Origin: Chitinophaga pinensis
Lineage (GTDB): Bacteria; Verrucomicrobiota; Verrucomicrobiia; Limisphaerales; JAEYXS01
Assembly (NCBI GenBank): GCA_943367715.1
Contig: CALRJY020000029.1
Span: 41-64,040 of the forward strand
Reading direction: 5' to 3'
DNA: 64,000 nt
Program-made: the position numbers and the translations under genes
Shown here: positions 5,190 through 47,020 of the stretch, one piece after another
Numbering within the stretch: the stretch's first letter is position 1
How the letters are laid out: each line of letters opens with the position of its first letter
Notes under the pieces: generated by a model
Database searches by the model: none
What the model saw: the letters and a program-made list of their open reading frames with translations, nothing else
What the model was told of the DNA's origin: nothing

Positions 5190-5744
5190 ATGATCACGCT
5201 CATCTCAGGAACCAATCGCGCCGACAGCAACACCCGCAAGGTCACCGCTGAGATCGAAGCCATCTACCGTGATCTCAAAGTCCAGACCCAGACGCTGGAC
5301 CTCACGCAACTCCCGGCGGAACTCTTCAACTCCGCCGCCTACGGGACGAAGCCCGCCGCCTTCACCCCTTTCAGCGATGGCGTGTTGAAAGCCGATGGCC
5401 TCGTCATCATCACCCCGGAATACAACGGCGGCATGCCTGGTGTGCTGAAATATTTCATCGATATGCTGAAATTCCCGGAAGCGTTTGAACATCGCCCGGT
5501 TTGCTTCGTGGGCTTGGCTGCCGGTATGTTCGGCGCACTCCGTCCCGTGGAACATCTCCAGCAAATCTTCGGTTACCGCAACGCCTACATCTATCCCAAC
5601 CGCGTCTTCATCCCCGGCGTCATGAACCAGCTCGATGCCACCGGAAAATTCAAAGACGCCGAACTCCGCGAACGCTTCGTCCAACAAGCGTCCGGTTTCG
5701 TCACCTTCGTCGAAAACGTAAAAGGCCTCAAACTCCGCGCCTGA
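5190..5744 (+). CDS. NAD(P)H-dependent FMN reductase family oxidoreductase
   Basis: 184 aa. MITLISGTNR...N-terminus and the ITPEYNGGMPGVLKYFID motif are characteristic of the FMN_red (PF03358-type) family. Confidence 0.8.
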   Translation: MITLISGTNRADSNTRKVTAEIEAIYRDLKVQTQTLDLTQLPAELFNSAAYGTKPAAFTPFSDGVLKADGLVIITPEYNGGMPGVLKYFIDMLKFPEAFEHRPVCFVGLAAGMFGALRPVEHLQQIFGYRNAYIYPNRVFIPGVMNQLDATGKFKDAELRERFVQQASGFVTFVENVKGLKLRA

Positions 5745-5807
5745 TCGTTAGCACTGTTGGGTATTGCACAGCGAGAAATTAAAGTGGCCCGGACACCGGA
5801 TTGTTCC

Positions 5808-6053
5808 ATGATTCAGGTAAGAAAGACATCTCCAAAGGAACTTAAAACACTTGGCGACCATTTGCGGAAAAGGCGGATGGAAACCAGCCTAACCCAAAGC
5901 CAAATCGCCGCCAAACTGGACATTCCACGCCTTCGCAAACAGGAGTTTGAGCGGGATGAAAGAACCCCATCGCAGGCCGACTGGAAGAAGTTATCGGCAG
6001 CGTTTGGGTTGTTAGCCCCTCAAGAACTGACCACACCCATCGGCGGAGTTTAA
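5808..6053 (+). CDS. small XRE-family helix-turn-helix protein (paralog 1)
   Basis: 81 aa from ATG 5808. LGDHLRKRRMETSLTQSQIAAKLDIPRLRKQEFERDERTPSQADWKKLSAAFGL fits the XRE/Cro HTH pattern. A paralog lies at 19723..19944. Confidence 0.55.
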   Translation: MIQVRKTSPKELKTLGDHLRKRRMETSLTQSQIAAKLDIPRLRKQEFERDERTPSQADWKKLSAAFGLLAPQELTTPIGGV

Positions 6054-6092
6054 TGTTGGGCATTACACGCCGTCACAATCGTCATAAGGGCC

Positions 6093-6310
6093 TCAATTAG
6101 AGAGATATGACTTGAGTTGCACCCATACCATCATGGTTTCGCGTATGGCTTCTAGGTGTGTCATTTGCGCGTCCGCCCATGCCTGACGGATACGCAGTAA
6201 CTCGCCCAAGCTAATGTCTCCCGCTGCGTAGCGGGCTTCCGCCAGTTCAGCGCGGTTTCTGCCTCGGGCAACACTTCAGTCTCGTATGCCTTGGAACGAC
6301 TAACGGCGGA
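6093..6310 (-). pseudogene. C-terminal remnant of a TolC/CzcC-family outer-membrane efflux protein (frameshifted)
   Basis: Two minus-strand frames joined by a 1-nt shift near 6232 read ...KAYETEVLPEAETALNWRK / ARYAAGDISLGELLRIRQAWADAQMTHLEAIRETMMVWVQLKSYLSN*. This matches the last ~70 aa pattern of CzcC/TolC-like proteins (..EVLP.AE.AL.....Y.AG.IS..ELL.A.......). No upstream body of the gene is present. Confidence 0.55.
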
Positions 6311-6479
6311 AAACTTGTATCTGCCTGCCTGACAAAAAGAACTAATCCCAAACTGGGGCCTTTTGGGAATCAGACTTAAGTTGTCCGCCACAGAGCTATC
6401 TCAACAGTAGCCTTGCTGACATAGCTCGTTTGTCTCGTTGCCTTTTCAGAAGTGCCCTGTAGTCTCGGACGATTGCGCG

Positions 6480-7229
6480 ATGCAGAGTGACACCGACACT
6501 GCTGGGGATGTAGCCAGGTCGCCACGTACCTTTTGCACTACCATGTGGCTGGTCGTACAGGAGGCCGGCCAGGTGGATTCTCAACGGTCTGCGGAGGCTC
6601 TGGCGCAACTTTGCCATGCCTACTGGTATCCGCTTTATGCCTTCGTACGGCGGCAGGGATATTCCCCCGAACAATCGCAGGATCTTACGCAGGAATTCTT
6701 TCGCCGCCTGATCGAAAAGAAAAGCTTCCAGGCCGCCGACCCCGCTCGCGGACGTTTCCGCTCCTTTCTGCTTTCTTCCCTCCGGAACTTTCTCGCCAAC
6801 GAATGGGAGCGAGCTCGCACCCAGAAACGTGGTGGCAATGCCATCAGCTTTTCCCTCGATGCCGTGAATGCCGAGGAGCAATACCAGCTCGAGCCATCCG
6901 ACGGGCGCACCCCGGAAACCATCTACGACCAGCGTTGGGCCTATGCCTTGTTAGAACGCGTCATGACGCAGCTACGGGAAGAGTTCACCGAATCAGGCAA
7001 AGCCGACCGCTTTGAAGCGTTCAGCACCTTCTTGTTGGACGATAATTCCGCCTCGCAGGCGGAGCTGGCTGTAGCCTTGAGGATGACGGAAAGCGCAGTG
7101 AAGTCGGCGATCCACCGTCTGCGCCAGCGGTATGGTGAACTGTTACGGCAGGAAGTGGCCCACACCGTAAGCCGCCCGGAGGACGTGGAGCGTGAAATTG
7201 TTGAACTATTTGAAAGTTTGGGTCGTTGA
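6480..7229 (+). CDS. ECF-type RNA polymerase sigma-70 family factor (kinase-associated type)
   Basis: ORF 6438..7229; likely ATG at 6480. Region 2 reads YWYPLYAFVRRQGYSPEQSQDLTQEFF. Region 4 HTH reads SQAELAVALRMTESAVKSAIHRLRQRYGE. About 50% identical by eye to the 34146..34994 product. The kinase gene follows after 41 nt. Confidence 0.85.
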   Translation: MQSDTDTAGDVARSPRTFCTTMWLVVQEAGQVDSQRSAEALAQLCHAYWYPLYAFVRRQGYSPEQSQDLTQEFFRRLIEKKSFQAADPARGRFRSFLLSSLRNFLANEWERARTQKRGGNAISFSLDAVNAEEQYQLEPSDGRTPETIYDQRWAYALLERVMTQLREEFTESGKADRFEAFSTFLLDDNSASQAELAVALRMTESAVKSAIHRLRQRYGELLRQEVAHTVSRPEDVEREIVELFESLGR

Positions 7230-7270
7230 TCGCGAAACCTTGGAAGCTTTTTCCGGTATAGCCTGTTGAA

Positions 7271-10200
7271 ATGGCAGTTTCTGCACCCAGTTTGAGATGC
7301 CGTAAATGCGGTGTCGCGCTGTCGTCATCTGGCACTACCGGCTTTTGCGCCCGTTGCCTGCTGGGTGGGGTCATGACTCCAAAACCGGGAACCCCTCCGC
7401 TTACCACCGTCATTCTGCCGAAGGTTCAGGATATTCGCCACCCCAGCCCGCCCATCACTGGCCGGCTCGGCGACTACGAAATCGTCGGGGAGGTCGCTCG
7501 CGGGGGAATGGGCGTGGTTTATAAAGCCCTAGACACCCGGACCGGAAGAACCGTCGCCCTGAAGATGATCCTCGCGGAAAGTCTCGGCGACATCTCCTTG
7601 AAGCGGTTCCAGAGTGAGGCCAGTGCTGCCGCCGCACTGGATCACCCGAACATCGTGCCGATATACGAAGTCGGCGAGACCGGCGGCCAGCCGTTCTTCA
7701 CGATGAAGCTGATTGAAGGCGGGAATCTGTCGTCCCGCCTCACCTCGTTTCATAAACACTTGCGTAAAGGTGTGGCCTTGCTGGCCAAGGTGGCGCGTGC
7801 CGTTCATCACGCTCACCAACGAGGCGTCCTGCACCGTGATCTGAAACCCAGCAACATCCTCGTAAACAATGAGGATGAACCCTTCGTCACCGATTTCGGC
7901 CTGGCGCGCCGGTTCGATGAGCAGAGTAACCTGACCCTGACCGGAACCCTCATTGGCACGCCTAATTTTATTGCTCCCGAGCTGCTGGGAAATCGACGGC
8001 AATCACTCACCACCGCTTCCGATATTTTCAGTCTCGGGGGGATTCTCTACAATGTCCTCACCGGACAGCCGCCCTTTCATTCTGAAAGTCTTTTTGAACT
8101 CCTCCATGGCGTCCAGCATACCGAGCCGCAACGCCCCTCCCTCCTCAATCAGCAGGTGGATGCCGACCTTGAGACGATCTGTTTGAAATGTCTCGAGAAA
8201 GATCCGCGCAACCGTTACCGCTCCGCTTTGGAACTGGCGGAAGATCTGGAGCGCTGGCTGGGGCATGAAACCATCGTGGCCCGTCGCGCCACTCCCGCTG
8301 AACGGGCCGTGAAGTGGGCCCGCCGCCGTCCCTTGGTGGCGGCTTTATCGGCGGCCATCATCTTGGCGGTCATCGGCGGCATTGTCGGAATCACCTTTCA
8401 GTGGCAGGAAGCCGAACACGCCCGAAAAATTGCCGAAGATAATCGCCAGGCGGAAAAACTGGCAAAGGAAGATGCCGAACGACAGCGCGCCAAGGCTGAG
8501 GAAGCCTTGAGCGATACCGCCGCCATGCTGACCGACAGTGAACTGGAAAAAGCAGATGCATTGCTGGCCGCCGGAGATTCCGGCGGCGGCTTGTCCTATC
8601 TGGCCCGCGTTCTCCGTCGCCAACCGGGCAACCTGGTGGCCTCAGGTCGTATCATGTCTTTCCTGCGTCAACGCAGCGTGGCTCTGCCGGAGATCTTAAG
8701 CTCTGCCAATCAATCTATGGTGCTTGATGCCGCCTTAAGCCAAGACGGCAACTGCCTCGTCACCGCTATCGATAAACCGGGCAACAATATCCAGATCACC
8801 CATTTCGATGCTTCAGCTCGCCTCCGAACCGCAACCCATGCTTTCGATACATTAGCCACCACCGCTGGCAAAGGCTCCGGACCATTCTTTGGCAAAGGAG
8901 TCGTCAGAACCAAGGCCCAGGCCAACACTCCCGAAGGAGACGGATTTCGGCTGGGCAACCCAACGGCTGCACGCCCCCGGCTGCCCATCATCGCAGGCTT
9001 TTTTTCCATTTCCTTCAGTCCCGATGATAAGCGCATCGTGTCCGCCGCCAATTCAGGCACCGTGCAGGTGTGGGATGCCTTCACCGGCGCAGCCGTCACG
9101 CCGGTATTGCAAACGGGTTCTCCCGTCGTCAGTGCGGCGCTTACGACAGGGGGCCGGTCGGTAGCGGCCGTGAGCCGCATGGGCAGAATGCAGGTATGGA
9201 ATCTCGCCACGGGTGAAGTCACCCAGGACGTGAAACTCCTCTCCTTGATTATTTCCGCCACGTTCAGCCCGGACGCTTCGCACGTCCTCCTCATCCGGGT
9301 GCCTGGGATTGCGCAGATATGGGATGTCCGTACCGGCAAGGTGGTCACGACACTTGAACACGAAGGCCTGGCTAATCACACGGCTTGGAGCAGTGATGGC
9401 CAAGTCGTTGCTCTCGCTGCGGAATCGGAGGTGAATGTGTGGCGTCTTGATCAGGGAAGTGGCAGTGCCTCGCGCATGAAACATCCACTGCCGGTCGCCA
9501 CACTGGTCTTGAATGCAGATGGTAGCAAGCTCGTCACCGGGTCCGATGATCAGTTTGCCCGGGTCTGGGATACCCGGACCGGCGAGCAATTGGTCCCGCC
9601 GCTGGAACACGCGGATGCCGTCCGTTTCATCACGTTCTCGGCTGACGGCAGGAAAATCGCCACCATCTCCCAAGGCAACGCCATCCGTGTCTTTGACACC
9701 CTCACGGGCCGGCCCGTTTGCGAGCCGATGCAACTTCGCAGCCCGGGTGTCTTCGCCCAGTTCACCCCGGGCGGTCGGGCCTTGATCGTGCTGTGCAGTG
9801 ATAGCACGATTTCACGCCACACCTTTGTCAGCCCGCCACCACCCATCGTTGCTCTGACTGATGCAGGGCGAGTTCGCTCGGCCAGCTTCAGCCCGGATGG
9901 GCGGATGCTCCTCACGGCTTCAGCCAATGGTCGCGCTCAACTTTGGGACGTGACTTCGGGTCGGAGCATACGGACTTTGGATCACGACTCTCCCCTTGTC
10001 AGTGCTGCTATGAATGCCGACGGATCACAGATCGTCACTGCGGGAACGGATCAAATGGTCCGGCTGTGGGAAACCCGTTCCGGCCGGCTGCTGGGACAGT
10101 CATTGCACGAATCCAACCGTATTTTCTCTGTCCGCTTCCGCTCTGACGAGCAGGTGGCCATCTCGACCGTCAGTGGCTTGGGCACTGTGTGGAAGCCCCG

Positions 10201-11026
10201 CACCGGCGAGCAACTCAGTCCTTTTCCCAACTACCCGGTGTGGCGTGAATCCATGATCCACTCATCGACGAACCGGGTGCTCGGCATTCTGGTGGCCGAA
10301 CGGGCCGCCGCCATCTACGACTATGTCACGGGTTCCATGACCGGGCCGCTGCTGAAACATTCGGACGTGATTACCAGTTGCAATTTCAGCCCCGACGGCC
10401 GCTACGCCATCACCACCTCCAGTGATAACACCGCCAACCTCTGGGACACGGCGACGTCACTGCCCCTCACGGGTCCGTTGCGGCACGATGGCGCGGTGTA
10501 CTTCGGAGCGTTTGCTCCGGATAACCAGCAGGCCGTCACCGCCTCCAAGGATAAAACGGCCCGGCTTTGGCGCATCGCTCCTGGTGTCTCCCTCACTCGC
10601 ACACTCCTTCATGAGGCCGGCGTACGTTATGCTGAATTTAGCCAGGACGGAGCGCGATTGCTGACCGTAGCCAGCGACTTCACCGTGCATCTCTGGGATG
10701 TGCGTCTGGGCCGGCGTCTGGCCGACCCGCTGCAGTTCAAGACCGCCGTGGTTTCCGCCCATTTCTCGCCTGACGGCCAGACCATTTTCGCCGCCAGCGA
10801 AGATGGTGACGCACGTCTTTGGTCAGTCCCCGCTCTTCCGCTCCCTGCCCCGGCGTGGCTGGCCGATGTGGCCGAGCAAATCGGCGGCTCGCGGATTGAT
10901 CCCAAAGGCCTGAACCAGCCAGCCCTTCGGCAGAACTTGTCCGAGTTGATCAACATCGCCCCCGGCACAGATCCCTACGCGCGGGAGATCAGGCGCTTGC
11001 TCCTTTCCGCTCCTGCCGCCAAATAA
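7271..11026 (+). CDS. membrane Ser/Thr protein kinase with N-terminal CxxC...CxxC motif and large C-terminal WD40/PD40 beta-propeller region
   Basis: 1251 aa. CRKCGVAL-X11-CARCLL; Hanks kinase motifs GGMGVVYKA, HRDLKPSNIL, DFGLAR, GTPNFIAPE. Single TM (LVAALSAAIILAVIGGIVGITF). Coiled-coil segment, then many FSPDG...WD-type repeats. Confidence 0.9.
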   Translation: MAVSAPSLRCRKCGVALSSSGTTGFCARCLLGGVMTPKPGTPPLTTVILPKVQDIRHPSPPITGRLGDYEIVGEVARGGMGVVYKALDTRTGRTVALKMILAESLGDISLKRFQSEASAAAALDHPNIVPIYEVGETGGQPFFTMKLIEGGNLSSRLTSFHKHLRKGVALLAKVARAVHHAHQRGVLHRDLKPSNILVNNEDEPFVTDFGLARRFDEQSNLTLTGTLIGTPNFIAPELLGNRRQSLTTASDIFSLGGILYNVLTGQPPFHSESLFELLHGVQHTEPQRPSLLNQQVDADLETICLKCLEKDPRNRYRSALELAEDLERWLGHETIVARRATPAERAVKWARRRPLVAALSAAIILAVIGGIVGITFQWQEAEHARKIAEDNRQAEKLAKEDAERQRAKAEEALSDTAAMLTDSELEKADALLAAGDSGGGLSYLARVLRRQPGNLVASGRIMSFLRQRSVALPEILSSANQSMVLDAALSQDGNCLVTAIDKPGNNIQITHFDASARLRTATHAFDTLATTAGKGSGPFFGKGVVRTKAQANTPEGDGFRLGNPTAARPRLPIIAGFFSISFSPDDKRIVSAANSGTVQVWDAFTGAAVTPVLQTGSPVVSAALTTGGRSVAAVSRMGRMQVWNLATGEVTQDVKLLSLIISATFSPDASHVLLIRVPGIAQIWDVRTGKVVTTLEHEGLANHTAWSSDGQVVALAAESEVNVWRLDQGSGSASRMKHPLPVATLVLNADGSKLVTGSDDQFARVWDTRTGEQLVPPLEHADAVRFITFSADGRKIATISQGNAIRVFDTLTGRPVCEPMQLRSPGVFAQFTPGGRALIVLCSDSTISRHTFVSPPPPIVALTDAGRVRSASFSPDGRMLLTASANGRAQLWDVTSGRSIRTLDHDSPLVSAAMNADGSQIVTAGTDQMVRLWETRSGRLLGQSLHESNRIFSVRFRSDEQVAISTVSGLGTVWKPRTGEQLSPFPNYPVWRESMIHSSTNRVLGILVAERAAAIYDYVTGSMTGPLLKHSDVITSCNFSPDGRYAITTSSDNTANLWDTATSLPLTGPLRHDGAVYFGAFAPDNQQAVTASKDKTARLWRIAPGVSLTRTLLHEAGVRYAEFSQDGARLLTVASDFTVHLWDVRLGRRLADPLQFKTAVVSAHFSPDGQTIFAASEDGDARLWSVPALPLPAPAWLADVAEQIGGSRIDPKGLNQPALRQNLSELINIAPGTDPYAREIRRLLLSAPAAK

Positions 11027-11162
11027 CTCAGTCCCCTAAGGCCGCTTCCGTCCTGTTCACCCTCTCGATTTCGGCTTTCTGAAAAATATTTATTTCGCCG
11101 CGAAACCTTTCGGGAATTTTCCGTTAGTAGCCGGTGAAGCCCCACCATGTCGGTGCGGCTGG

Positions 11163-19127: not shown

Positions 19128-19136
19128 GATAACGTC

Positions 19137-19613
19137 ATGAAAATCACTCTGTTTAAACAGCACGGTCTCATTTCCTGGCTTGGGGTCATCCTGTTCCTGC
19201 TCTTGGCATCAGCCGCCCAAGCTCAGTCTTATGCCATCGATAATCCCACCATCAGCAATGGCGGCGGCACCAGCAGCAACAGCCAATACACCCTGAGCGG
19301 CACCATCGGCCAACCTGCGAGCGACTCCGCGAACAGCAGCGGATACGGCCTCGCCACCGGTTTCTGGAGCGCCGTCATCCCGCTGAACACGCCCGATGCC
19401 CCTTTGCTCACCATCACTAGAATCGGCGGCAACATCATGCTCTCCTGGTCCGCATCCGCTGGAGTTTTCAAACTCGAAGAGACCACCGACCTAAACGCAC
19501 CAATCATCTGGACATTATCCAAAGCCACCATCGTGACCGAAAACGAAGTCAGCACCGCCACCCTGCCAAACAACGGTGGCCTGCGTTTCTTCCGCCTGTC
19601 CCAGACCAAGTAA
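19137..19613 (+). CDS. small secreted protein co-transcribed with the giant gene
   Basis: 158 aa, starting 9 nt after the giant ORF stop. Signal peptide (WLGVILFLLLASAAQAQS). GGGTSSNSQYTLSGTIGQP...GYGLATGFWS motif. C-terminal beta domain ends GGLRFFRLSQ. No family name recalled. Confidence 0.6.
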   Translation: MKITLFKQHGLISWLGVILFLLLASAAQAQSYAIDNPTISNGGGTSSNSQYTLSGTIGQPASDSANSSGYGLATGFWSAVIPLNTPDAPLLTITRIGGNIMLSWSASAGVFKLEETTDLNAPIIWTLSKATIVTENEVSTATLPNNGGLRFFRLSQTK

Positions 19614-19640
19614 GACCATTAAAGGACAATTAAATTCATC

Positions 19641-19668
19641 GCAAGATTCTGACACAGAACGTTTAGCA
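19641..19668. repeat. cassette-tail motif, copy 1 (gcaagattctgacacagaacgtttagca)
   Basis: 25/28 identical to 35287..35314. Contains the small palindrome ttctg-N3-cagaa. Abuts the head repeat copy B. Confidence 0.6.
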
Positions 19669-28000: not shown

Positions 28001-30517
28001 GCTGACCACCGTGGACAGATCACCATTCACCAGACCGCTATAACCAGCCGAGAACGTCGGATTGGCCGCACCATAGGTCTTGCTGGTGTTAACCGGGGTG
28101 ATCGTCAACGGAGCCTGATCTATCGTCAGTGTGCTGCTCACTAAAGCGATCCCATACCCCATGTCGGTGAGTGACAGTGTGCCATTCGCCGTGGAGATCG
28201 GCGCTGTGCCGGAACTGGTTCCAGCAGTAGCCGAAGTGGAAAGCGCGGGCGTGCCAGTAATGGCCGCACCCAAGGTGTCGCCGCTCAGCAAGCCACTCAC
28301 TGAATAGGTCAACGCCGGGTTGGCAGCGCCATAAGTCTTGGACTTGCTCTCCGCTGTGAAGGTGAGCACCGGAGCCAAGCTGTAAAGGAAACGATCCCCC
28401 GTCGCACTGATGGTCGCAGGTGCATTCGCATCGTAGGTCTTATTGTAAGTCGTCGCTCCCGTCAGACCGCCCTTGATCGTATTCACCGGAGCATCGCTGT
28501 AAATAAGGTAACGTCCGCTACCGCTCGCCTCCACGGCGGTAGCACCAGAGTTGTTGACGAAACTACCGCCCCGCGCGGCCAGCACAAGGTCACTGGCACC
28601 CGTGTTCTTGACCAATGCCCCAGAACCCAGAGTGAGATTACCGCCCGTGACAATTTCCACCGCACCCGCCACGCCGCTGAAATCACCGTTCACCATCAAG
28701 CCACCCGCGCTATCATACACTTTGAGATTGCCCCCGATTGTGCCCTCATTGCCGATCGTCTCCAGTGCACCGATGGTGTTGTTCACATTGTTGATCAACA
28801 CATCCGCAGCAAAGCCACCGAACTCGCGCGACAGGAAAACGGAACCGGCATTCACCGTGCCAGCAAGGTTTACGGTGCCGACGTTCAGATTGTCCGGCGC
28901 AGCAATCATGCTTTTACCCAACGTCAACGAGCCGACACTGATCGACTTGTTCGCCGCCAGCGAAATGGTGCCCACGGAACTATTCGCCAGGCTGGGCACG
29001 CCGGCATATAGATTCAGGCTGCTGCCCGTGCCACCGCTGATGTTCGCGTTGATGGCGATGGTGTCGCCGGAAGCCAAGGTGAGGCCGGAAGCAGTCGTCC
29101 AGTTCACATCAGCGTTGACGCTGATGCCGTTGTAGCCCGCAGGCCCGCTGGTGTAGATTTCAACATCGGTAAAACCGAGTGTTGAATTCAAAGTGGAAAC
29201 ATTCAGGTAAGACGGGATGGCTCCTGCTTGGAAGTAGCCGCCTTGGTTGAAGATATCCTGACCGGCATCGGTCGTGATGATAATCGAGTCAGGGTCCAGA
29301 AGCAGTCTGCCCTTTTTGCCAAATGGAGCGGAGGTGTCGGCGGTGCCAGAAAAATCAAGCACCCGTTTGCCTGAAACTTCCAGCAAACCGCCGTCCCCGC
29401 CTTCACTCCCACCCTTGGCTAAAATAGTACCTTTGAATTGCGTTGCCCCATCCGCCCAGACAATCGCTTTGCCGCCATTCCCCATCGTAGCATTGGCACT
29501 GACATCGAGCTTCGCCGATTCAGTCACGATGGTAGTGGCCGCGTTCGCCACGGCACTGTTCTTTCCTTGGTAGTCACCGCCGACAAGGATCTCGCCACCG
29601 CTGCCATTGGCGTTATGCGCGCTGATCTCCCCGGAAACTTTCACCTTGCCGCCATCGGCCGTAAGCAACACCCGGCCATTCTTTTCCTCCACGCCGGTGG
29701 CGCGGATGATACCGGATTGGTTCACCGCCAGTTCATAGATGCTGCCGCCTGCAGCTTTCAATTCCGCTTGCGCCGCTTTCATCAGCCCGGAGTTCTCCAC
29801 CCCTTGCTCCAACCCATCCGCCTGCAGACCACTTTTAACCAAAATGCGCTGATCCCCTTGATGGGTGAGCAACACTTCGGAACCGGCAGCCAATCCCGCC
29901 ACGCCTTTGGGCGCATTGATCTCGCCCGCGTTCTTCACTGTGTAGGCGATAAGCATGACGTCGCCATTTTGCGCGTTGATGGTGCCGAGGTTGTGGATGC
30001 CTGCTTTGGAATCACCTGAAAAAAGCAGATTGCCCTGCTTGAGAAAATCATTGTCCGAGATATTCAACGTGGAAGCAAAGAAAGCTCCGACATCGATGCG
30101 ACCTTGTGGGCCGACCACGATGCCATTCGGGTTGATCAGGTAGACTTGGCCATTGGCTTGAAGCTGGCCTAGGATCAAGGACGGATTGCCTCCGAGGACG
30201 CGATTAAGCGTAGCGCTATCGACGCCTGGCTGGATGAAGCGCGTGATGTCACCCGCCTTGATGTCAAACCCCTGCCAGTTGATCACCGCTGCGCCAGTTT
30301 GCTGCTCGATGGTGCGAACGTTGCCGTTCTGTTGGAAAGTCGCCGCACCGACCACTACCTGCGGTGCACCTACGATATCGGCCGCTTGCATCATGCTGGG
30401 CGCCAGCACGAGAAAAACAGCCAGCCAAGTCATCGCCTGCAAAGGCAAGGAAAGCGGGCGAAAACGATAACGACTCTTCTCTTGCTGTGCTGGCGTTGCT
30501 GAACACATTGAGCTCAT
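22073..30517 (-). CDS. giant two-partner-secretion exoprotein (TpsA / filamentous-haemagglutinin-like) with about 20 MBG repeats and a hydrophobic Gly/Ala-rich C-terminus
   Basis: 2814 aa. TPS domain motifs: INWQGFDI, LNRVLGGNPSLILGQL, YLINPNGIVVG. Beta-helix region carries GGDGGLLEVSGK...GRLLLDPD. A long array follows of '..K.YG.ANP.F.A.Y.GLVNGD..SVVSGL...T.A...SGVG.Y.I...GASA.NY.ISY..GTLTI' (MBG/YG-type) repeats. Confidence 0.9.
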   Translation of the reverse strand: MSSMCSATPAQQEKSRYRFRPLSLPLQAMTWLAVFLVLAPSMMQAADIVGAPQVVVGAATFQQNGNVRTIEQQTGAAVINWQGFDIKAGDITRFIQPGVDSATLNRVLGGNPSLILGQLQANGQVYLINPNGIVVGPQGRIDVGAFFASTLNISDNDFLKQGNLLFSGDSKAGIHNLGTINAQNGDVMLIAYTVKNAGEINAPKGVAGLAAGSEVLLTHQGDQRILVKSGLQADGLEQGVENSGLMKAAQAELKAAGGSIYELAVNQSGIIRATGVEEKNGRVLLTADGGKVKVSGEISAHNANGSGGEILVGGDYQGKNSAVANAATTIVTESAKLDVSANATMGNGGKAIVWADGATQFKGTILAKGGSEGGDGGLLEVSGKRVLDFSGTADTSAPFGKKGRLLLDPDSIIITTDAGQDIFNQGGYFQAGAIPSYLNVSTLNSTLGFTDVEIYTSGPAGYNGISVNADVNWTTASGLTLASGDTIAINANISGGTGSSLNLYAGVPSLANSSVGTISLAANKSISVGSLTLGKSMIAAPDNLNVGTVNLAGTVNAGSVFLSREFGGFAADVLINNVNNTIGALETIGNEGTIGGNLKVYDSAGGLMVNGDFSGVAGAVEIVTGGNLTLGSGALVKNTGASDLVLAARGGSFVNNSGATAVEASGSGRYLIYSDAPVNTIKGGLTGATTYNKTYDANAPATISATGDRFLYSLAPVLTFTAESKSKTYGAANPALTYSVSGLLSGDTLGAAITGTPALSTSATAGTSSGTAPISTANGTLSLTDMGYGIALVSSTLTIDQAPLTITPVNTSKTYGAANPTFSAGYSGLVNGDLSTVVSGLLMGTPATASSGVGTYAITGSGASAANYSISYLPGTLTINQAPLTITANNNNKIYGSANPTFSASFGGLVNGDLSTVVSGLALGTTATASSGAGTYPITGSGASAANYSISYSPGVLTIDRALLTITANDASRAFGAANPTFSALYGGLVNGDNSSVVSGLSLATTADAASPVGNYSIIAAGASAANYSISYVPGTLSVANAILTITADNFSRIYGSANPTFTAGYAGFINGDTVSIVSGLQFNTSATINSGIGTYSITPFGASAPNYGINYVAGSLSISPADLVIRANNASRIYGAVDPTFTANYSGLVAGDTAANISGLTLTPAATVTSGVGDYAITASGAANPNYNISYAPGTLTIDKAPLTIAADNKSKTYGAVNPALTATFTGLKNGENDSVVSGLSLATTAATGSGAGNYAITASGASAANYSISYGAGTLTIGKAPLIITANDASRTYGAVNPSFSASYNGLVNSDLSSVVSGLLLGTTATSSTGVGGYPITASGASAVNYNISYAPGTLTINQAPLTITANSLNKTYGSANPTLTASYSGLMNGESSGVVSGLSLGTTATSSTGVGGYAITASGASAANYSISYAPGTLTIDKAPLAITADNQSKIYGSANPTLTASYSGLVNNDLSSVVSGLSIVTAATANSGVGDYGITVSGASAPNYSISYTAGTLSVNPATLTVRADNQTRFYGDANPTFGGTVSGFVLGENTSVLTSLPTYSTTAGLTTGVGGYAITPSGGSAANYNIVRQNGTLTINPAILAVNADNTVRTYGDANPTLTYTVSGLKNGDSADGKFFIFTHGSVAAPNSPVGNYNIIFNGNDTPNDNYSTFFANGTLTVQPRALTIRTDAISREYGLANPAFTATFTGLASFDTPSVIPTLGFNTLATTASGVGDYTVTPTSGNNANYVITRLPSLMSITPAPLTIAAGSLFRDYGDANPTFTPFIAGGSLRNGDTAVGVNLRIVTGATQSSPVGTYNLAGAITSPNYTIVNSVAGSLQILPAILNVTVGNGTRLYGDANPGVSVSATGLKLSDTAAAQVTLTHSATAQAPVGTYSISAVGNSANYQINSVTPGNLQIFPAPLNVTVGNTSRGYGDANPTTAPLTVTGFKFGEAGNTAVQIIHSATLQSSVGSYPITATGINPNYFLSAVTPGALQITPAQLNVRLFNADRIYGDANPTPAFETITGLKFGETFASVVSRGNSATLQSGVGSYPFTATSISPNYQVNSVEGSLRILPAPLNVTAANTTRFYGDPNPATALQSVVGLKFGETPASIVTLNSEASLQQLVGTYDILATSQSPNYQITLVSGTMRVNPRPITLIGNDASKIFGENNPSLSYSVGGSGVASFDNAATLLAGVGVSTTAELTSTVGGYPIAITGPTVPNPNYAVTLQPGTLTVNPRPISLDVQGFTRFYYDANPEVVTTIGGMGLASFDTLADVISWIDKTPALAADIGAYPLFPRILDSHNYDITLRGNLATIVPRNLTIYVDSIKVDEGATVPGFSAVVGNLPTGLTMADVLPNLTYGTVDDAASFRPEVRPVSALTDHPIANPFAAANLSAMEVDADGNILKAPNTAGGLSGLATKFLIFAKDPAPVPPVVLDPDTTFLIPVDFVTGGTLVSRKTITVSGYNENPNYAVTYVSGGRLEVIIPNAATLAAREMEAIAESKAHLEVTTTPPATPFKMPEAFKAPAMQPYLEQAAQTLMAQLISAGDTVTLDLYFKDGISSFLSGFNDDPTRQTMLMGRLSEVVIKYAKLPADQQPPELAFIIQEATIKAKQVKIDQAQEVVRLYDEWLAGPDPSIPQIVNPGDMNLVPNFAHQVKVSYAKDAAIVIGTSLGAGATVGALMCAVPVSAITSAVATGGALSGASLGFTASTTIGAAITATTTSGAGAVSGIGMAVVAPALVAALAVATITIAAVQLAKQPEIKASIAAAQSLAVAAPAGVSLDLNDVDDQAAFTSGFLSFMSGGAL
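23528..28375 (-). repeat. MBG-type repeat array (about 80 aa / 240 bp period, about 20 copies, coding)
   Basis: aa ~715-2330 of TpsA. Neighbouring central copies (e.g. aa 1281-1360 vs 1361-1440) are highly similar; distal copies are more diverged. Confidence 0.8.
29618..30382 (-). other. TPS (haemagglutination-activity) secretion domain of TpsA
   Basis: aa ~46-300 of the TpsA ORF. NPNG(I) and N-x-V-x-G-x-x-x-S motifs are present. Confidence 0.8.
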
Positions 30518-30680
30518 ATTTTAACGGCGCGCATAGTGTGGTCCTAACGACAGACAGCAAGCGCTATCCCTTCCTGAACCATTTAAGGGGGAGAGTTTCG
30601 CAAGAAATGAAGAATCATCCTTATTCGGATGAGGTAAGCTCGCCGGACGGCTAACCCTTTTTTGCCACCAGTCTATCCGC

Positions 30681-33600
30681 TTACTTCAATCGTTCTTTGG
30701 CCGTAGCGAGGCGGCTTAGAAGTGGGACGTCATCGCGATTGAGTGCGAGCAGTCGCTCCAAATGAAAGGCGGCGGTAAACCATTCCCCCTGCATTTCCGC
30801 GACCGCCGAGCAGTGCCGGTGCCAGTCCGTCGGATCGCTGTTCCAGATGAAATCCTGTGGCTGGACCGCCTGCAATCCGGCAAAGGTCTGCGCCAGTTCA
30901 GCCGAGGAAACCATGATCCGGCGGCCTTGGTCATCCAGCTTTACGCCATTGAGGCAAACTGCTAATTGACGCCAAGAATTGGCTGGCCACGCAGCCTGGC
31001 GGAAGTGAAAAAAACTCGTAGCCCCGCGCGCCGAACCGAACAGCAAAGTTTCACCATCAGATGTGAACTGGATCGATTGCGGCGCGTATCCCAAGACCAG
31101 CGGCGGCGCCATCAACTCGCCGCGTGCCGTGTCCCACAGGCGGATAGCATTATCCGCAGCGGAGGTGGCCAACACATTCCTGCCCGGTTGAAAATTCTGG
31201 GTAACTAAAAGGCCACCGTGATGAAAATCCGGCGCGGCCGGGCTGCCATCGCTCACTCGCCAGAGACGCACCACACTGTCCTGACCCGAGGTGACCAGCA
31301 CATCCCCTTTGTTAGAAAACATAGCGCCAGTCACCCCGTCACCATGCCTCAGGGGCGGGCCCAGTGCGCGCAAGGTGGGCAGTTCATACATTTGCGCATA
31401 AGCCGGCTCGATATTGCGGTCATTGAACGCGATCACCATGCGGCCGTTATCCGGACTGAAGCTGACCGCCCGCACTTCGCCGTCAGAGAAAATCGGATCA
31501 CCAACCGGCGTGCCCGTGGCCGCATCCCATACTGTGGCACAATTGACTCCGCCAGCCACTACGATCCAGCGACCATCCGGACTCCAGGTGGAGACGGAAC
31601 CTTTGACGCCATAAGTCCACTGCGCCGACAGCGGGCGGCCATCGGAATAGGTCTTGCGATCCATCACCGGCCCGCTGGCGCAGCGTTCCGCAATACTCCA
31701 CACTTGAGCCGTATTGTTGTCCAATGCCACGAGCAATTTAGTCCCGTCCGGGTTGAAGGCCACGGCGGCCACCGTGCCTAGATCTGGCAGATCAAGCACC
31801 ACCCGGCTGGTCGGGATATCCCAGACCTGCACGCCCTCTTTGCCACAAGCGACTGCAAGCCGACGACCGGAAGCGTCAAAGATCGTCTGCGCTGCCGCCC
31901 CCCTGCTTTTCAACACTTCCCCGACCGGCCGTTGGGCTGCGATATCCCAAAACTGCAACTGGCGGCCGTTGCTGACCAGCACGGCGGATTTCCCGTCCGG
32001 GCTGATGGCTGTCTTACGGGCAAAGGTGGCGCCAGTCGGCACGAAATTCTGCCGGAGAAACAGATCGAACACGCGCACGGTGCCCCACGCATCACCGGTC
32101 GCCAGGAAGCGCCCGTCCGCGCTGAAGGCCAACGCCTCCACCAGCGCGCCATTTTGAAAGGTGGGCAGGGCCTGACGCAGTTCGCGGGTGTAATGTACGC
32201 GCACCTGATAATCAAACCCGGCGGTGGCGAGAAACCGGCCGTCCGGACTGAAGAGCACCCGGTTAGCGCCATTGTGATGGCGGATGGAAAAGCGATACCG
32301 GTTGCCATCTGGAACCGTGCGCACCTCCGCTTGATCATTGAATGCAGCGGTCGCAAAATACTTTCCGTCCGGGCTGAAATCCTGATCCAAGAATGCGCTG
32401 CTGGGCTTGACCTGAAAGAGCTGAGGGCCGCCGTGAGTATCACTGACACGGGTGGACGCACCATCGGCCACCGCCACCCAACGCCCGTCGGCGCTCACCA
32501 GCCTGCCCACATGAGCGATTGGCCCCGTCGTCTGTTTCGGACCGCTTTCCGTCGCGGAGATTTCGCGCCCCGTATCCAACTGCCAGACCCGTTCCCCACC
32601 CGTCCGCATGATCGCGGTGAGCCGCGAGTTATCCGGTGCAAAGGAAAGCGTCACCGGCGTGCCGCGCGCATCCCACATCCTCAACAGATGAGGTGCAAAC
32701 TGCCACGTCAGACTGAGACGCTCCAGACTCTGCGGCATGGCCCCCGCCTCCTGCTGCTCCAAAGCGAGGGCCTCAACCAAAGGCAGCATCGCCGCGTAGC
32801 AATCGTGGTCAGCCGTGAGCAGTGACGCTTCGTGCAAGTGCTGCGATACCAGTTCGCGACGAGTCTCTCGCGCGCTGGCTTCCAAGGCATGGCGGGTCTG
32901 CGAGAGTGAAACATTGAACCACAGTGAGCCTGCCGTAATGATGAGCAGCAGCAACGGCACGAGCACGGCGAGCGCGGCTTTCGCCGGGTGACGGCGCATC
33001 CATTTCACGCCCCGTTCCAAAGAAGTGCTCGCCCGGGCCAGCACCGGTTCACCACGTAACCAATTCTCAAGATCATCCGCCAGAGCAGCCGCGCTGGAAT
33101 AACGGTGCTCGGGATCTTTCTCCAGACATTTGAGACAGATGATCTCCAAATCGATATCCAACGCGGTAGCGCGCCGAAAGGATGGTGCCTCGTCCTCGAT
33201 GATCTGGCGGAGCAACGCCGGCGTGTTCGTGGCGGCAAACGGCAGGTGACCGGCGAGCATTTCGTAAAGCATCGCTCCGAGCCCATACACGTCGGCACCC
33301 ACGGTCACATCACGCGTCTGTCCGAGCGCTTGCTCAGGCGACATATAAGCGGGCGTGCCCAGCACGGCAGCGGAATGGGTGAGATCCCGGCTCTCCTCCA
33401 CCATCTTCGCGAGGCCGAAGTCTGTGAGATGCGGCTCACCATGAGCGTCGAGCAGGATGTTAGTCGGCTTGAGATCGCGATGCAGGACGCCATGCAGATG
33501 GGCGTGATGAACCGCCCGGGCAACCTTCACCAGCAAACGCGCGGCCTCCTCCGGCTTGAAACGCATCTCGACCATCCGCGCCGCCAGCGTGCCGCCTTCG

Positions 33601-34022
33601 ATCAGGCGCATGGAGAAAAAATGCCAGCCGTCGTGATGGCCCACTTCCAGGATGGGAACGATGTTCGGATGGGCCAGCTTGGCGGCTGATTCGGCCTCGG
33701 TGCGGAACCGCTCAACCATCCGGGGCGACGCCAGCTCTCCAGCGGCGATTACCTTGAGCGCCACCATACGGTTCAGTTTTACCTGCCGCGCGCGGAAGAC
33801 GACCCCCATGCCGCCACGCGCAATTTCCCCGAGCAATTCGTAGCCTGCGAACGTACGACGCTGCAACAATTGCTCTGGCGCCTGCAGTTCCACCAACTCC
33901 GCCTCGGAATCCGCCACGGCGTTGATCAGGAGACAGCGCACGCAGAGCGCGTCGGCGGTGGCGTCGGCAAGCGACGCCCCGCAACGCGGGCAAAGTCCTG
34001 ATTTAACGTGCGTGTCCGACAT
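30681..34022 (-). CDS. membrane Ser/Thr protein kinase with CxxC...CxxC motif and WD40/PD40 beta-propeller region (paralog of 7271..11026)
   Basis: ORF extends to 34130. Met at 34022 (MSDTHVKSGLCPRCG...) matches the N-terminus of the paralog. Kinase motifs: GGMGVVFRA, HRDLKPTNIL, DFGLAK, GTPAYMSPE. TM segment ALAVLVPLLLLIITAGSLWF, then many FSPDG-type repeats and a helical C-terminal tail. Confidence 0.85.
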   Translation of the reverse strand: MSDTHVKSGLCPRCGASLADATADALCVRCLLINAVADSEAELVELQAPEQLLQRRTFAGYELLGEIARGGMGVVFRARQVKLNRMVALKVIAAGELASPRMVERFRTEAESAAKLAHPNIVPILEVGHHDGWHFFSMRLIEGGTLAARMVEMRFKPEEAARLLVKVARAVHHAHLHGVLHRDLKPTNILLDAHGEPHLTDFGLAKMVEESRDLTHSAAVLGTPAYMSPEQALGQTRDVTVGADVYGLGAMLYEMLAGHLPFAATNTPALLRQIIEDEAPSFRRATALDIDLEIICLKCLEKDPEHRYSSAAALADDLENWLRGEPVLARASTSLERGVKWMRRHPAKAALAVLVPLLLLIITAGSLWFNVSLSQTRHALEASARETRRELVSQHLHEASLLTADHDCYAAMLPLVEALALEQQEAGAMPQSLERLSLTWQFAPHLLRMWDARGTPVTLSFAPDNSRLTAIMRTGGERVWQLDTGREISATESGPKQTTGPIAHVGRLVSADGRWVAVADGASTRVSDTHGGPQLFQVKPSSAFLDQDFSPDGKYFATAAFNDQAEVRTVPDGNRYRFSIRHHNGANRVLFSPDGRFLATAGFDYQVRVHYTRELRQALPTFQNGALVEALAFSADGRFLATGDAWGTVRVFDLFLRQNFVPTGATFARKTAISPDGKSAVLVSNGRQLQFWDIAAQRPVGEVLKSRGAAAQTIFDASGRRLAVACGKEGVQVWDIPTSRVVLDLPDLGTVAAVAFNPDGTKLLVALDNNTAQVWSIAERCASGPVMDRKTYSDGRPLSAQWTYGVKGSVSTWSPDGRWIVVAGGVNCATVWDAATGTPVGDPIFSDGEVRAVSFSPDNGRMVIAFNDRNIEPAYAQMYELPTLRALGPPLRHGDGVTGAMFSNKGDVLVTSGQDSVVRLWRVSDGSPAAPDFHHGGLLVTQNFQPGRNVLATSAADNAIRLWDTARGELMAPPLVLGYAPQSIQFTSDGETLLFGSARGATSFFHFRQAAWPANSWRQLAVCLNGVKLDDQGRRIMVSSAELAQTFAGLQAVQPQDFIWNSDPTDWHRHCSAVAEMQGEWFTAAFHLERLLALNRDDVPLLSRLATAKERLK

Positions 34023-34145
34023 AGTGGCAGAGCCATAGGATACCTGAACCGGATTCAGGGGCAAAGTTTCGCGAACCGTGCGGATTTCCCGTCTCCACTG
34101 GTGATTTCGGGAAAGGCGGTGCGGCCACAATATCCTTCGCTCGTT

Positions 34146-34994
34146 TCAAGGATTGCCCAACAACGTGATGAGATACTGGATCTCTGCCTCGACTTCGGCA
34201 GGCGATGATACCGTCTGCGCGATCTCCTCCCGGATGAGTTCACCATAGCGGCGCCGCAGCCGGAAGATGGCGGATTTCGTGGCCGCTTCGGAAAGCCCCA
34301 GCCGTGCGGCAACAGTAGCGTAAGAGTCCATGCCACCATTGCCTTGAAGAAAAACCTTCAATGCAGCGAAGCGTTCCGACAGGCCCTCGCGACGCGACTC
34401 CGCTTCCAGCTCAGCCAGCGCGTTGCTGACCACGGCCTGTGCCCAACGCCGGTCATAGAGGGACTCCGCCGAGGCATCATCCATCGGCTCCAACGCATAA
34501 CGCCGCTCGGGTTCCAGTTCATCCCACGAAATGAATTCCGTGCCACCGCCGCGCTTGAGCCGCTGGGAATCACGCCAGTCGTTGGCGAGAAAATGCTTCA
34601 ACGCCCCCAGCAGAAACGTGCGGAACCGCCCCCGTTCCGGTTGCGCCGTCTTCAGCGAATCGCCGACCAGCAAACGCGCGAAGAATTCCTGGGTCAGATC
34701 CTGTGCCTGATGTTCATCGTAGCCACGCCGACGGACAAATACATACAACGGATACCAATACTGACGGCAGAGAATCTCCAAAGCCGGACGCGCCGTATCA
34801 TCACCACCGCCCGCTTCCATTACCAAGCTCCAGCGCGTCGTTTGAAACACCGCGCGTTGCGATAGGGAAGGGTTACTCCCTTCGGCTGATTGGCTGACAA
34901 CTGGCACGCGTAACCTGTAATCAATCTCCCACAGAATATCCAGCACATCCCAACCCCTTGTTTCAGATAGAAAGAAGACCTCATCGGCACGCAA
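34146..34994 (-). CDS. ECF-type sigma-70 family factor (paralog of 6480..7229)
   Basis: YWYPLYVFVRRRGYDEHQAQDLTQEFF (region 2). ATVAARLGLSEAATKSAIFRLRRRYGE (region 4). Start uncertain: the conserved core begins at ..TTRWSLV, and a GTG at 34914 is an alternative to the ATG at 34994. Confidence 0.8.
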   Translation of the reverse strand: MRADEVFFLSETRGWDVLDILWEIDYRLRVPVVSQSAEGSNPSLSQRAVFQTTRWSLVMEAGGGDDTARPALEILCRQYWYPLYVFVRRRGYDEHQAQDLTQEFFARLLVGDSLKTAQPERGRFRTFLLGALKHFLANDWRDSQRLKRGGGTEFISWDELEPERRYALEPMDDASAESLYDRRWAQAVVSNALAELEAESRREGLSERFAALKVFLQGNGGMDSYATVAARLGLSEAATKSAIFRLRRRYGELIREEIAQTVSSPAEVEAEIQYLITLLGNP

Positions 34995-35286
34995 TCCGCA
35001 CCCTCGACTCTAACTGATGGTTCATCAGCAACATACTACACATTCCATCCTTCCCATCTTCGATACTTGCCCACCCGATAGGATAGACGTGAATTCCACC
35101 CCGTTGACCATAAGTCCCACGTAAGGAATTTGAGCGCTAAGACAGGTGCCCCTGATGGAGAGTGCGTCGCAAGGAAGCAAAGCCCCGTCGATATGTTTGC
35201 GAACGAATAACAGCACCCTTGACCAGAGGAATACGCGCAAATTGCAAATCGCTGAGTCAACCTTCTATCACAAGCATAGGTTCTCT

Positions 35287-35314
35287 GCAAGATTCTGCCG
35301 CAGAACGTGTAGCA
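35287..35314. repeat. cassette-tail motif, copy 2 (gcaagattctgccgcagaacgtgtagca)
   Basis: 25/28 identical to 19641..19668. Followed by unrelated sequence leading to the Gfo/Idh/MocA gene. Confidence 0.6.
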
Positions 35315-35419
35315 GCCGACGTGAGGAGGCTCTGACTAAATTTGAGCTTTGGCCATTCTTTGGTGTTTTGATTCTTTGGATTTTGAGTTTTATCCGTATC
35401 TGTGGTTAAAAATCTTCCC

Positions 35420-43934: not shown

Positions 43935-44121
43935 ACCCTAACAATACACCCTAAAACTGACTCTGAACAAGCGGCTGGACTAAAAGAGGCAAATAATGTA
44001 CATCTTTAAACAATTCAGACGGTTAACAACGCCGGGAAACCGTCGAAACTTACCCCAATGACATGCTGCCGGATGAAAGGGCGATTTACGTCCAGAAACA
44101 GCAGCGAAACCTTAGATCAAT

Positions 44122-44694: not shown

Positions 44695-44767
44695 GAATAC
44701 TTTGGTTTACGGGCAAGCGGGAGTATTCCTGCTTGCCCGTTTTGCTTTCTGCCGCTTGCATAAGCCC

Positions 44768-46372: not shown

Positions 46373-46424
46373 CTCGCTTTCAGGAAGTTGCCAGGCCCCT
46401 ATTTCAGAAAGTTCCTTGTGCCGC

Positions 46425-46469: not shown

Positions 46470-46479
46470 AGAAGAAGCC

Positions 46480-47016: not shown

Positions 47017-47020
47017 AGTT

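Follow-up and report, generated by a model that had tools for sequence, protein, structure and literature searches.

Two stacked ECF sigma/kinase/exoprotein units with att-like junctions at one TAGCA site in a Limisphaerales genome

Introduction

Cis-mobilisable elements (CIMEs) are recognisable decay products derived from integrative and conjugative elements (ICEs) or integrative and mobilisable elements (IMEs) with a tyrosine or serine integrase, and their direct repeats are tens of bp long. Integrative mobile elements exploiting Xer (IMEX), such as the CTX/RS1/TLC arrays and the gonococcal genetic island, have no recombinase of their own; they use the host Xer, form tandem arrays and have a partly palindromic site of ~28 nt. 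In the tandem accretion described for ICESt1-type elements of Streptococcus thermophilus, CIMEs can be mobilised only in cis or trans by the recombinase of another element (PMC5704250). Here we analyse a locus in which two large units lie head-to-tail between the genes for a flavin mononucleotide (FMN) reductase and a Gfo/Idh/MocA oxidoreductase, within a 64,000-nt stretch of contig CALRJY020000029.1 (assembly GCA_943367715.1, filed as Chitinophaga pinensis; GTDB order Limisphaerales, Verrucomicrobiota). This whole stretch is referred to as the window, and coordinates are counted from its first letter.

To our knowledge, almost nothing is known about the exchange of very large surface-protein and signalling gene sets in Verrucomicrobia. 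In two-partner secretion (TPS; TpsA/TpsB, FhaB/FhaC type), a TPS-domain exoprotein is encoded beside its ShlB/POTRA partner. Several groups of extracytoplasmic function (ECF) sigma factors (ECF43, ECF59-62, ECF217/267/283) are associated with Ser/Thr kinases, lack an anti-sigma factor and have been proposed to be activated by phosphorylation (PMC7826278). Gene sets of both kinds are present in the locus described here. A first-pass annotation, made from the letters of the window, had read the two units as related tandem elements bounded by att-like junctions with a shared cgtNtagca core, and had named a microhomology-mediated duplication as the alternative.

Results

The units occupy a spacer that is intact in relatives

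The contigs that encode homologs of the FMN reductase were identified. In three relatives the FMN reductase gene is followed directly by the Gfo/Idh/MocA gene (L013, on a 5.7 Mb contig; L016; and L017, L018 and L019; L numbers denote the 34 loci fetched for comparison), which bears out the earlier expectation that the two flanking genes would be found adjacent. The Gfo/Idh/MocA proteins of L013 and L016 are 90-91% identical in amino acid sequence to that of the window (35420-36463, plus strand; Pfam), and downstream L017 has the same gene order as the window: AhpC, a 540-aa protein, RNB, UDG and protoglobin. The spacer of L017 reads ...ctccgcggcTAG-ttca-TAGCA-GCCGACGTGAGGAGGCTCTGAC-..., with the stop codon TAG before ttca. 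Its TAGCA-GCCGACGTGAGGAGGCTCTGAC portion, consisting of TAGCA and 22 nt of native spacer (the attB right arm), agrees with window 35310-35336 in all 27 bases, as it does in L018 and L019. This 27-mer is perfectly conserved although the neighbouring genes are only 81-86% identical in nucleotide sequence, and outside it no alignment of the spacer is possible.

On the left, the FMN reductase gene (5190-5744, plus strand; Pfam FMN_red, E 6e-32) ends with a TGA codon (5742-5744) 4 nt before the first TAGCA. Its product has 184 aa, like all homologs examined; the insertion thus did not truncate the gene. With the two flanking genes adjoining in relatives and 27 bases of the spacer matched exactly, this comparison shows that close relatives have an uninterrupted spacer here and that the 29,561 bases between the FMN reductase stop codon and the Gfo/Idh/MocA gene are inserted in it. 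In the window, TAGCA stands at the three junctions A, B and C described below; the empty site has a single copy. The empty site had been predicted as ..ctccgcgcctgat-cgtNtagca-gccgacgtgaggagg..; the site found in L017-L019 is ..ctccgcggctag-ttcaTAGCA-gccgacgtgaggagg.., in which only the TAGCA of the predicted core is native.

An imperfect palindrome, CCTCCGCGGCTA / TAGCAGCCG..GGAGG, is present at the empty site of L017 (10540-10600), centred just left of TAGCA; the point of insertion in the window corresponds to its centre, and its fold (-10.1 kcal/mol, z -1.5) is non-significant.

The same FMN reductase-Gfo/Idh/MocA spacer holds an unrelated 6.2 kb minus-strand cluster in another relative (L020 6235-12448 and L021 2398-8671), which encodes a sulfatase, DeoC, AP_endonuc_2, a Gfo-like protein and GntR and stands beside an FMN reductase 79% identical to that of the window. 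The spacer is therefore a general insertion hotspot. The DNA to the left of the FMN reductase gene also differs among relatives.

Three junctions share a TAGCA core

Unit 1 (5754-19668) and unit 2 (19669-35314) are arranged head-to-tail, and all three junctions described in the first-pass annotation can be read in the sequence. At junction A, the FMN reductase stop codon is followed by t-cgtTAGCA (cgtTAGCA at 5746-5753) and then by ctgttgggtattgcacagcgagaaat. Junction B consists of gcaagattctgacacagaa-cgttTAGCA (19641-19668) followed by the same 27 bases as at A, and junction C of gcaagattctgccgcagaa-cgtgTAGCA (35287-35314) followed by gccgacgtgagg... (gccgacgtgaggagg...), running up to the Gfo/Idh/MocA gene. 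Junction B equals the tail of C (25/28 bases) plus TAGCA plus the head of A (35/36 bases). TAGCA is directly repeated at the two ends of the insert, in an attL-like copy at 5749-5753 and in the copy at 35310-35314. It is also the part of the proposed core that A, B, C and the empty site have in common; the preceding cgtN, present at A and C, is absent from the empty site. Judged by their sequences, the three junctions and the empty site of the relatives constitute a complete attL / attP-like / attR / attB set. Beyond these junctions, cgtNTAGCA occurs at chance level only in the window and the 34 fetched loci. Excision would be expected to leave the hypothetical attB join CTCCGCGCCTGATCGTTAGCAGCCGACGTGAGGAGG.

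Since junction B joins the tail seen at C to the head seen at A, the donor DNA would have had tail, TAGCA and head joined, as a circle or a concatemer. The reading we favour, with a modest lean towards it, is that a recombinase provided in trans inserted circular DNA at TAGCA, leaving an integrase-less, CIME-like tandem array. On this proposal, a donor with joined tail-TAGCA-head (circle or concatemer) would have recombined at the single native chromosomal TAGCA, and conservative site-specific recombination or target-specific insertion would have produced attL (A), the attP-like site (B) and attR (C). Either two events at one site or one event with a pre-formed two-unit circle would suffice. 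As no recombinase is encoded in the units, the enzyme would have to act in trans. In the joined form, whether at B or in a circle, the tail would lie 12 nt upstream of the start of a helix-turn-helix (HTH) gene; integration would part the tail from the HTH gene of unit 1 (HTH1) and place a copy of it in front of the Gfo/Idh/MocA gene. At junction B, neither a sigma-70 promoter nor a terminator consensus was found, and inspection of the junctions by eye gave no convincing ECF-type, sigma-54, dif-like, attC-like or core-type inverted-repeat pattern.

A single TAGCA in the empty site and a TAGCA flanking each unit would also be produced by target-specific transposition with a 5-bp TAGCA target duplication, in which head and tail would be transposon ends, the transposase would act in trans and the second copy would have entered the duplicated target. 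The direct motif repeats inside the left end (see below) resemble multiple transposase-binding sites, and a Y1 (IS200-like) transposase gene is present at 54343-54795. However, the units are not bounded by terminal inverted repeats, the motif is not found in inverted form at the right end of either, subterminal hairpins are lacking (z about 0), and the Y1 locus has no sequence link to head or tail. Furthermore, TAGCA precedes the head in other genomes, which argues that it is part of the head module and not a duplicated target. Transposition of this kind therefore appears quite improbable to us. The Y1 gene itself (150 aa; PF01797, E 1e-23) opens a locus at 54343-55110 in which it is followed by nested palindromes, e.g. 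CCTAGGCCAACGGCCTAGG; the locus resembles a repetitive extragenic palindrome (REP)-associated (RAYT-type) or an IS200 locus and shares no 9-mer with the head or tail beyond chance.

The units diverged before they reached the site

An alternative is tandem duplication of one ancestral unit in situ via the short repeat, with later divergence, cargo replacement and inversion. A duplication between two cgtNTAGCA copies would yield the exact A/B/C pattern, and the units have a common order of HTH gene, non-coding block, and ECF and kinase types. The degree of divergence speaks against it. The two sigma factors, ECF1 and ECF2, are 48% identical and the HTH proteins 60%, while the Ser/Thr kinases STK1 and STK2 share 44% identity in the catalytic domain and 29% overall; the giant proteins of the two units are unrelated by Pfam. 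Flanking-gene orthologs in genomes without the insert are 80-91% identical. With unit paralogs at 29-60% compared with 80-91% for the flanks, the units must have diverged long before reaching the site.

Unit 2 also has closer relatives elsewhere. Orthologs of its ECF2-STK2-TPS2 genes are found in three other lineages (L029, L031 and L034), with identities of 77-81% for the ECF sigma factor, 74.5% for the kinase and 60-77% for the exoprotein, and STK2 is closer to this kinase than to STK1. In these lineages the operon lies directly downstream of a comM/Mg-chelatase gene, without HTH gene, head or tail. Duplication in place, the alternative raised in the first-pass annotation, is thus unlikely, and given both the 29-60% identity of the paralogs and the 74.5% identity of STK2 to a kinase at another locus we rate it as very unlikely.

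The comM-locus operons span L029 9500-20747, L031 2944-15320 and L034 1-8953, and in L029 comM is reduced to a remnant. About 80 nt upstream of the operon are common to L029 and L031 and absent from the window; no comM fragment was found to accompany unit 2.

The head is the 5' end of a dispersed XRE module

The head, taken in the first-pass annotation for a cassette-specific end, turned out to be the TTG start (LGIAQR...) of an XRE gene family that is present at other Limisphaerales loci without ECF/kinase cargo. Head 1 (TAGCACTGTTGGGTATTGCACAGCGAGAAAT, 5749-5780, plus strand) includes the TTG start of HTH1 at 5757, and the sequence of head 2 (19664-19695, plus strand) is the same. HTH1 (5757-6053, plus strand; 98 aa, starting LGIAQREIK...; Pfam HTH_3) and HTH2 (19672-19944, plus strand; 90 aa; Pfam HTH_31/HTH_3) are each followed by a second copy of a motif contained in the head. 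In unit 1 this copy, TGTTGGGCATTACAC (6054-6068, plus strand), lies 299 nt past the first and directly 3' of the HTH1 stop codon; in unit 2 a motif scan places it at 19968-19982 (plus strand). The motif TGTTGGGYATTRCAC occurs five times in the 64 kb, compared with 0.36 expected, always on the plus strand and always within the two HTH modules.

A 20-mer of the head, CTGTTGGGTATTGCACAGCG, was found in nine metagenome-assembled genomes (MAGs) of Verrucomicrobia subdivision 3 / Limisphaerales, at unrelated loci and in every case as the start of an HTH-gene homolog. Alignments by tblastn begin at residue 1, and the Joint Genome Institute (JGI) gene calls for the homologs in L025-L028, which were found by protein similarity alone, begin at the same TTG. 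Downstream of the motif, changes fall at third codon positions, which we read as a sign that the region is translated. Six loci that represent at least five organisms were aligned; they show 0% identity to the left of cGT(T)AGCA, 100% identity over ~33 nt, synonymous positions included, and 30-55% identity through the coding sequence; similarity stops directly after the second motif copy. That copy follows 298-299 nt past the first in the window (twice) and in L004, L006, L010, L025 and L027. By these alignments, the head is the left edge of a discrete ~330-nt XRE module that is dispersed at unrelated loci. Very large secreted proteins are often encoded beside it (YDG/PATR in L003, Laminin_G_3 in L010 and a homolog of giant protein 1 in L027).

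HTH1 and HTH2 score above the Pfam cutoffs for HTH_3/HTH_31, and the nearest solved structures in the PDB include ImmR of ICEBs1 and controller proteins of restriction-modification (R-M) systems. The specific NCBIfam subfamilies (RstR, HipB, DicA) all remain below cutoff, and on these family matches the two proteins are generic XRE regulators. The HTH genes alone stand out in composition, with a low G+C content at third codon positions (0.48-0.52). The head had no match in viral contigs, nor did the HTH protein in plasmids and phages. In a search for the HTH family in metagenome contigs with a 7-sequence alignment, there were 526 pattern matches, of which tblastn confirmed 0.

The module families show some further features. 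A second HTH subfamily consists of ~620-nt modules that are 82% identical within one MAG, including 97 nt upstream of the head; its copies lie at L003 5541-6161, after a 1826-aa YDG/PATR protein, and at L008 5732-6350 in head orientation (locus 1651-2269, minus strand). As a parallel case, L003 and L008 from this MAG and L002 from another share 84-97 nt upstream of the head. In L007 the similarity is lost 7 nt before the head, with the break at GGGTCAA and two N's beside it. In L027 (6365-9217) and L028 (2030-5768), the head-HTH module follows ~20 nt past the terminator of two AhpC genes, and after it come a 79-aa open reading frame (ORF) and, on the minus strand, a homolog with 51-56% identity to giant protein 1; L027 and L016, which has the empty FMN reductase-Gfo/Idh/MocA site, come from one JGI sample. 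The HTH homolog of L006 (2385-2640, head-oriented) contains an in-frame TAG where its relatives have TCG and is likely to be a pseudogene or a sequencing error. In the window, a degenerate third motif copy, TGTCGGGTATTACAT, at 20224-20238, ~95 nt past block 2 (see below), may be a remnant of another HTH module start.

The tail is a palindrome next to the core

Each unit terminates with a tail, a 23-nt palindromic sequence followed by TAGCA. Tail 1 with its core reads GCAAGATTCTG-ACA-CAGAACGT-T-TAGCA (junction B, attP-like; 19641-19668, plus strand; palindrome at 19647-19659), and tail 2, located by pattern match, reads GCAAGATTCTG-CCG-CAGAACGT-G-TAGCA (junction C, attR-like; 35287-35314, plus strand). 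The palindrome is AAGATTCTG-NNN-CAGAACGT, with a 3-nt centre, and the tail pattern occurs twice in the 64 kb compared with 0.01 expected. Three differences separate the two 28-nt tails: two lie in the 3-nt palindrome loop and one affects the base before TAGCA. All three are among four spacer positions, for which the probability by chance is 4/3276, and this confinement fits a protein-binding palindrome under selection. At junction B the tail is 12 nt upstream of the HTH2 start codon. It is probably an operator for a dimeric XRE protein. The first-pass annotation had proposed a search for further tail copies; none beyond B and C was found in the window or the 34 fetched loci, where further tail palindromes occur at chance level only, or in the JGI metagenome contigs.

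Weighing the proposed integration

A rival explanation does without a dedicated att system. The spacer may simply be a hotspot at which operons were joined by illegitimate or homology-assisted events, pasted by TAGCA microhomology or by recombination between dispersed HTH modules, with head and tail as ordinary regulatory DNA of the XRE gene, the head as its 5' end and the tail as its operator. In favour of this, the head belongs to a dispersed family of XRE genes as their conserved 5' end, L020/L021 have an unrelated 6.2 kb insert in this very spacer, and the region left of the FMN reductase gene varies among relatives as well. No recombinase was found, the core has only 5 nt, and at other loci the unit 2 operon lacks head and tail. 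Such joining has more difficulty with the positions of the breakpoints: those in the donor both fall at the same periodic position (tail/head, TAGCA), and the target was also entered at a single TAGCA. Random microhomology would hardly produce three joins at an equivalent position, and homologous recombination cannot explain those at A and C, with their shared stretch of only 5 nt. We consider an origin by such joining rather unlikely.

Several observations weigh against our preferred reading, the integration of circular DNA at TAGCA by an enzyme in trans. The common core of 5 nt is short enough that microhomology-mediated joining could also have used it. No recombinase gene is present in or next to the units, and the only candidate within the 64 kb is the unrelated Y1_Tnp gene; nor, across ten other loci, does a recombinase consistently accompany the HTH modules. 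No significant single-stranded DNA fold was seen at junctions A, B and C (z +1.96, +0.10 and +0.64, respectively). The first-pass annotation had suggested looking for genomes with one or three units; no such site, and in particular none with a single unit, turned up among the relatives examined, nor did either unit turn up between these ends at a different site. Of the two ends, the head recurs at unrelated loci in at least nine MAGs, and an exact-pattern scan of JGI metagenome contigs for the tail GATTCTGNNNCAGAACGTNTAGCA gave 0 matches. The insert of L020/L021 lacks TAGCA, head and tail. The k-mer comparison with the flanks that had been suggested for 5.7-35.3 kb showed no difference: tetranucleotide correlations between units and flanks (~0.77-0.91) overlap those between the flanks (0.84-0.92), and GC content is the same.

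Finally, the order of unit 1 before unit 2 relies on the assembly of the window itself across an exact 32-nt repeat, the head. At this repeat, independent Logan contigs of the same sample are interrupted: L001 stops at window position 5777, and the contig behind L012 begins at ~19665. It is conceivable that only unit 2 is integrated and that unit 1, located elsewhere or present as a free circle, was threaded in by the assembler, as the Logan contigs break exactly at the head on both sides and a de Bruijn graph permits either resolution. A 32-nt repeat is, however, shorter than ordinary reads, a one-base difference between A and B just left of it would let a read-based assembler resolve the two copies, and the window derives from an 82.5 kb contig. 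We regard an artefact of this sort as highly improbable.

Gene content of the two units

Gene content was confirmed by Pfam much as first described: two HTH genes, two ECF sigma factors, two WD40 kinases and giant-exoprotein operons, with the operon of unit 2 inverted relative to that of unit 1, as the minus-strand gene calls agree. No integrase, transposase or relaxase domain was detected by Pfam scan between 5745 and 35314, in agreement with the earlier statement that neither unit encodes such a protein. Upstream of unit 1 lie the FMN reductase gene and a gene for a CarboxypepD_reg protein (Pfam).

In unit 1, all genes are on the plus strand. HTH1 is followed by conserved non-coding block 1 (6335-6470), ECF1 (6480-7229; Pfam Sigma70_r2 and Sigma70_ECF), a Ser/Thr kinase with WD40 propellers (STK1, 7271-11026; Pfam Pkinase, WD40) and giant secreted protein 1 (11163-19127; 2654 aa), which contains collagen triplets and BNR/sortilin-type repeats (Pfam) and whose gene includes 120-nt repeat families. 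The final gene of the unit (19137-19613) encodes a 158-aa protein with no Pfam family and an N terminus that looks signal-peptide-like by eye. In unit 2, HTH2 and block 2 (19990-20130, plus strand), with no ECF gene beside it, face an operon on the minus strand that comprises a TpsB-type transporter of the ShlB/FhaC type (20313-22070; Pfam PF03865 and POTRA_2), a giant TpsA exoprotein (22073-30517; 2814 aa, with a TPS domain, PF05860, E 3e-30, and 19 MBG_2 repeats), a Ser/Thr kinase with WD40 propellers (STK2, 30681-34130; 74.5% identical to the L029 kinase) and ECF2 (34146-34820; Pfam, also called as a gene in L012, with the homologs next to comM mentioned above). After the called genes, ~1.3 kb of the insert remains non-coding.

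In both sigma factors Sigma70_r2 is above cutoff and r4_2 is weak, and the only NCBIfam model that comes near is the generic sigma70-ECF superfamily (41.8-41.9 bits, 41.9 for ECF1, compared with a cutoff of 42.9). The kinase gene begins 42 nt past the sigma gene in unit 1 and 16 nt past it in unit 2, and there is no anti-sigma gene. From these families, each unit appears to be a self-contained signalling and surface-protein module, in which the WD40 propellers of the kinase would sense a signal, the kinase would probably activate the ECF sigma factor and the sigma factor would probably transcribe the exoprotein operon.

The ~140-nt non-coding block is 82% identical between the units, compared with ~60% nucleotide identity for the adjacent HTH genes. 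Block 1 abuts ECF1; in unit 2 the block is faced by the ShlB gene, which is convergent, with its 3' end. The block has no Rfam match and no convincing small ORF on either strand, and its consensus fold is weak, with -13 kcal/mol and a single covarying pair. A role as an ECF promoter was considered and rejected: neither the block nor the region upstream of ECF2 is significantly similar to the conserved promoter region of the ECF2 orthologs. The regions upstream of ECF1 and ECF2 show no similarity to each other. Among known RNA families, a search of the window and both head regions returned none but a chance-level match to CRISPR-DR21 at 20311-20340 (18.3 bits compared with a gathering score of 48, E 3.1).

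Outside the insert, the window encodes an RRM_1 protein with a Gly/Arg-rich tail specified by 18-21-nt repeats (57273-57704) and a tRNA-Pro(CGG) (58177-58254) just upstream of two amidohydrolase genes. The GC skew changes sign at ~44000-53000, with the cumulative minimum near 44 kb.

Discussion

The locus is a clean case: the empty site is defined to the base, the ends of the two stacked islands match, and a conserved module with a small regulator lies at the boundary. Its geometry and the empty site both support the att-like reading; mobility and mechanism remain proposals. If the junctions are recombination sites served by an enzyme in trans, this would be a new way to mobilise 15-kb operon blocks in a poorly studied phylum, and would account for the frozen state, across species, of the first 33 nt in an XRE gene that otherwise evolves fast. 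If they are not, the locus still documents an integration hotspot for giant exoprotein operons controlled by ECF sigma factors and kinases. A bolder form of the proposal is that the units represent an undescribed family of recombinase-less integrative islands of Limisphaerales (Verrucomicrobia subdivision 3), mobilised by a host enzyme in trans. Their attachment site would lie between the operator and the start codon of the XRE gene, integration and excision would toggle the regulator between operator-less and operator-bearing states, the recombinase would recognise the 33-nt head with its copy 299 nt downstream, and arbitrary cargo could be captured and stacked in tandem. This is speculative, and we think it unlikely.

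The cargo has parallels in described systems. The ECF sigma genes are followed directly by a Hanks-type kinase gene without an anti-sigma gene, an arrangement by which we liken them to the kinase-associated ECF groups; unlike those groups, they are linked to a giant exoprotein operon and an XRE module. Unit 2 resembles two-partner secretion in that the TPS-domain exoprotein is encoded beside a ShlB/POTRA transporter, and differs from typical cases in its passenger of 19 MBG_2 repeats and in the coupling of the operon to an ECF/kinase pair. The HTH proteins recall ImmR of ICEBs1, RstR of the CTX phage and the C proteins of R-M systems, being small, located at an element end and with a palindrome just upstream of the start; in contrast to these, all their family matches are below the cutoffs. 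We know of no counterpart for an invariant 33-nt 5' region with a second motif copy 299 nt downstream.

As for the arrangement of the units, three known mechanisms were examined and rejected. Like integron cassettes, the units lack a recombinase, have one orientation and are set apart by a repeated junction with a GTT, but they are multi-operon blocks of 14-16 kb and GTTAGCA does not fit GTTRRRY. There is no intI/attI (the upstream genes being those for FMN reductase and the CarboxypepD_reg protein), and the fold scores given above show that the junctions lack attC hairpins. Mobilisation in trans of the IS200/IS605 type finds neither significant hairpins nor, beyond chance, a 9-mer shared between the Y1_Tnp locus and the tail or head. 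A dif/Xer mechanism was set aside because dif-like sites have two arms of ~11 nt around a centre of 6-8 nt; the centre of the tail palindrome measures 3 nt, and no palindrome of this kind is present at the empty site. IMEX nevertheless offer a likeness in general design, with units that have no recombinase and stand in tandem at one short (~28 nt), partly palindromic site; here the target is not dif-like but an ordinary intergenic spacer, and the palindrome centre is 3 nt as opposed to 6-8 nt. The comparison with CIMEs goes further. The locus departs from them in its 5-nt core, in having no ICE/IME remnants, integrase or conjugation genes, and in a left end that is the start of an XRE gene; it matches them in its integrase-less units placed head-to-tail at one site just 3' of a gene, with attL and attR kept and an internal att site between the units.

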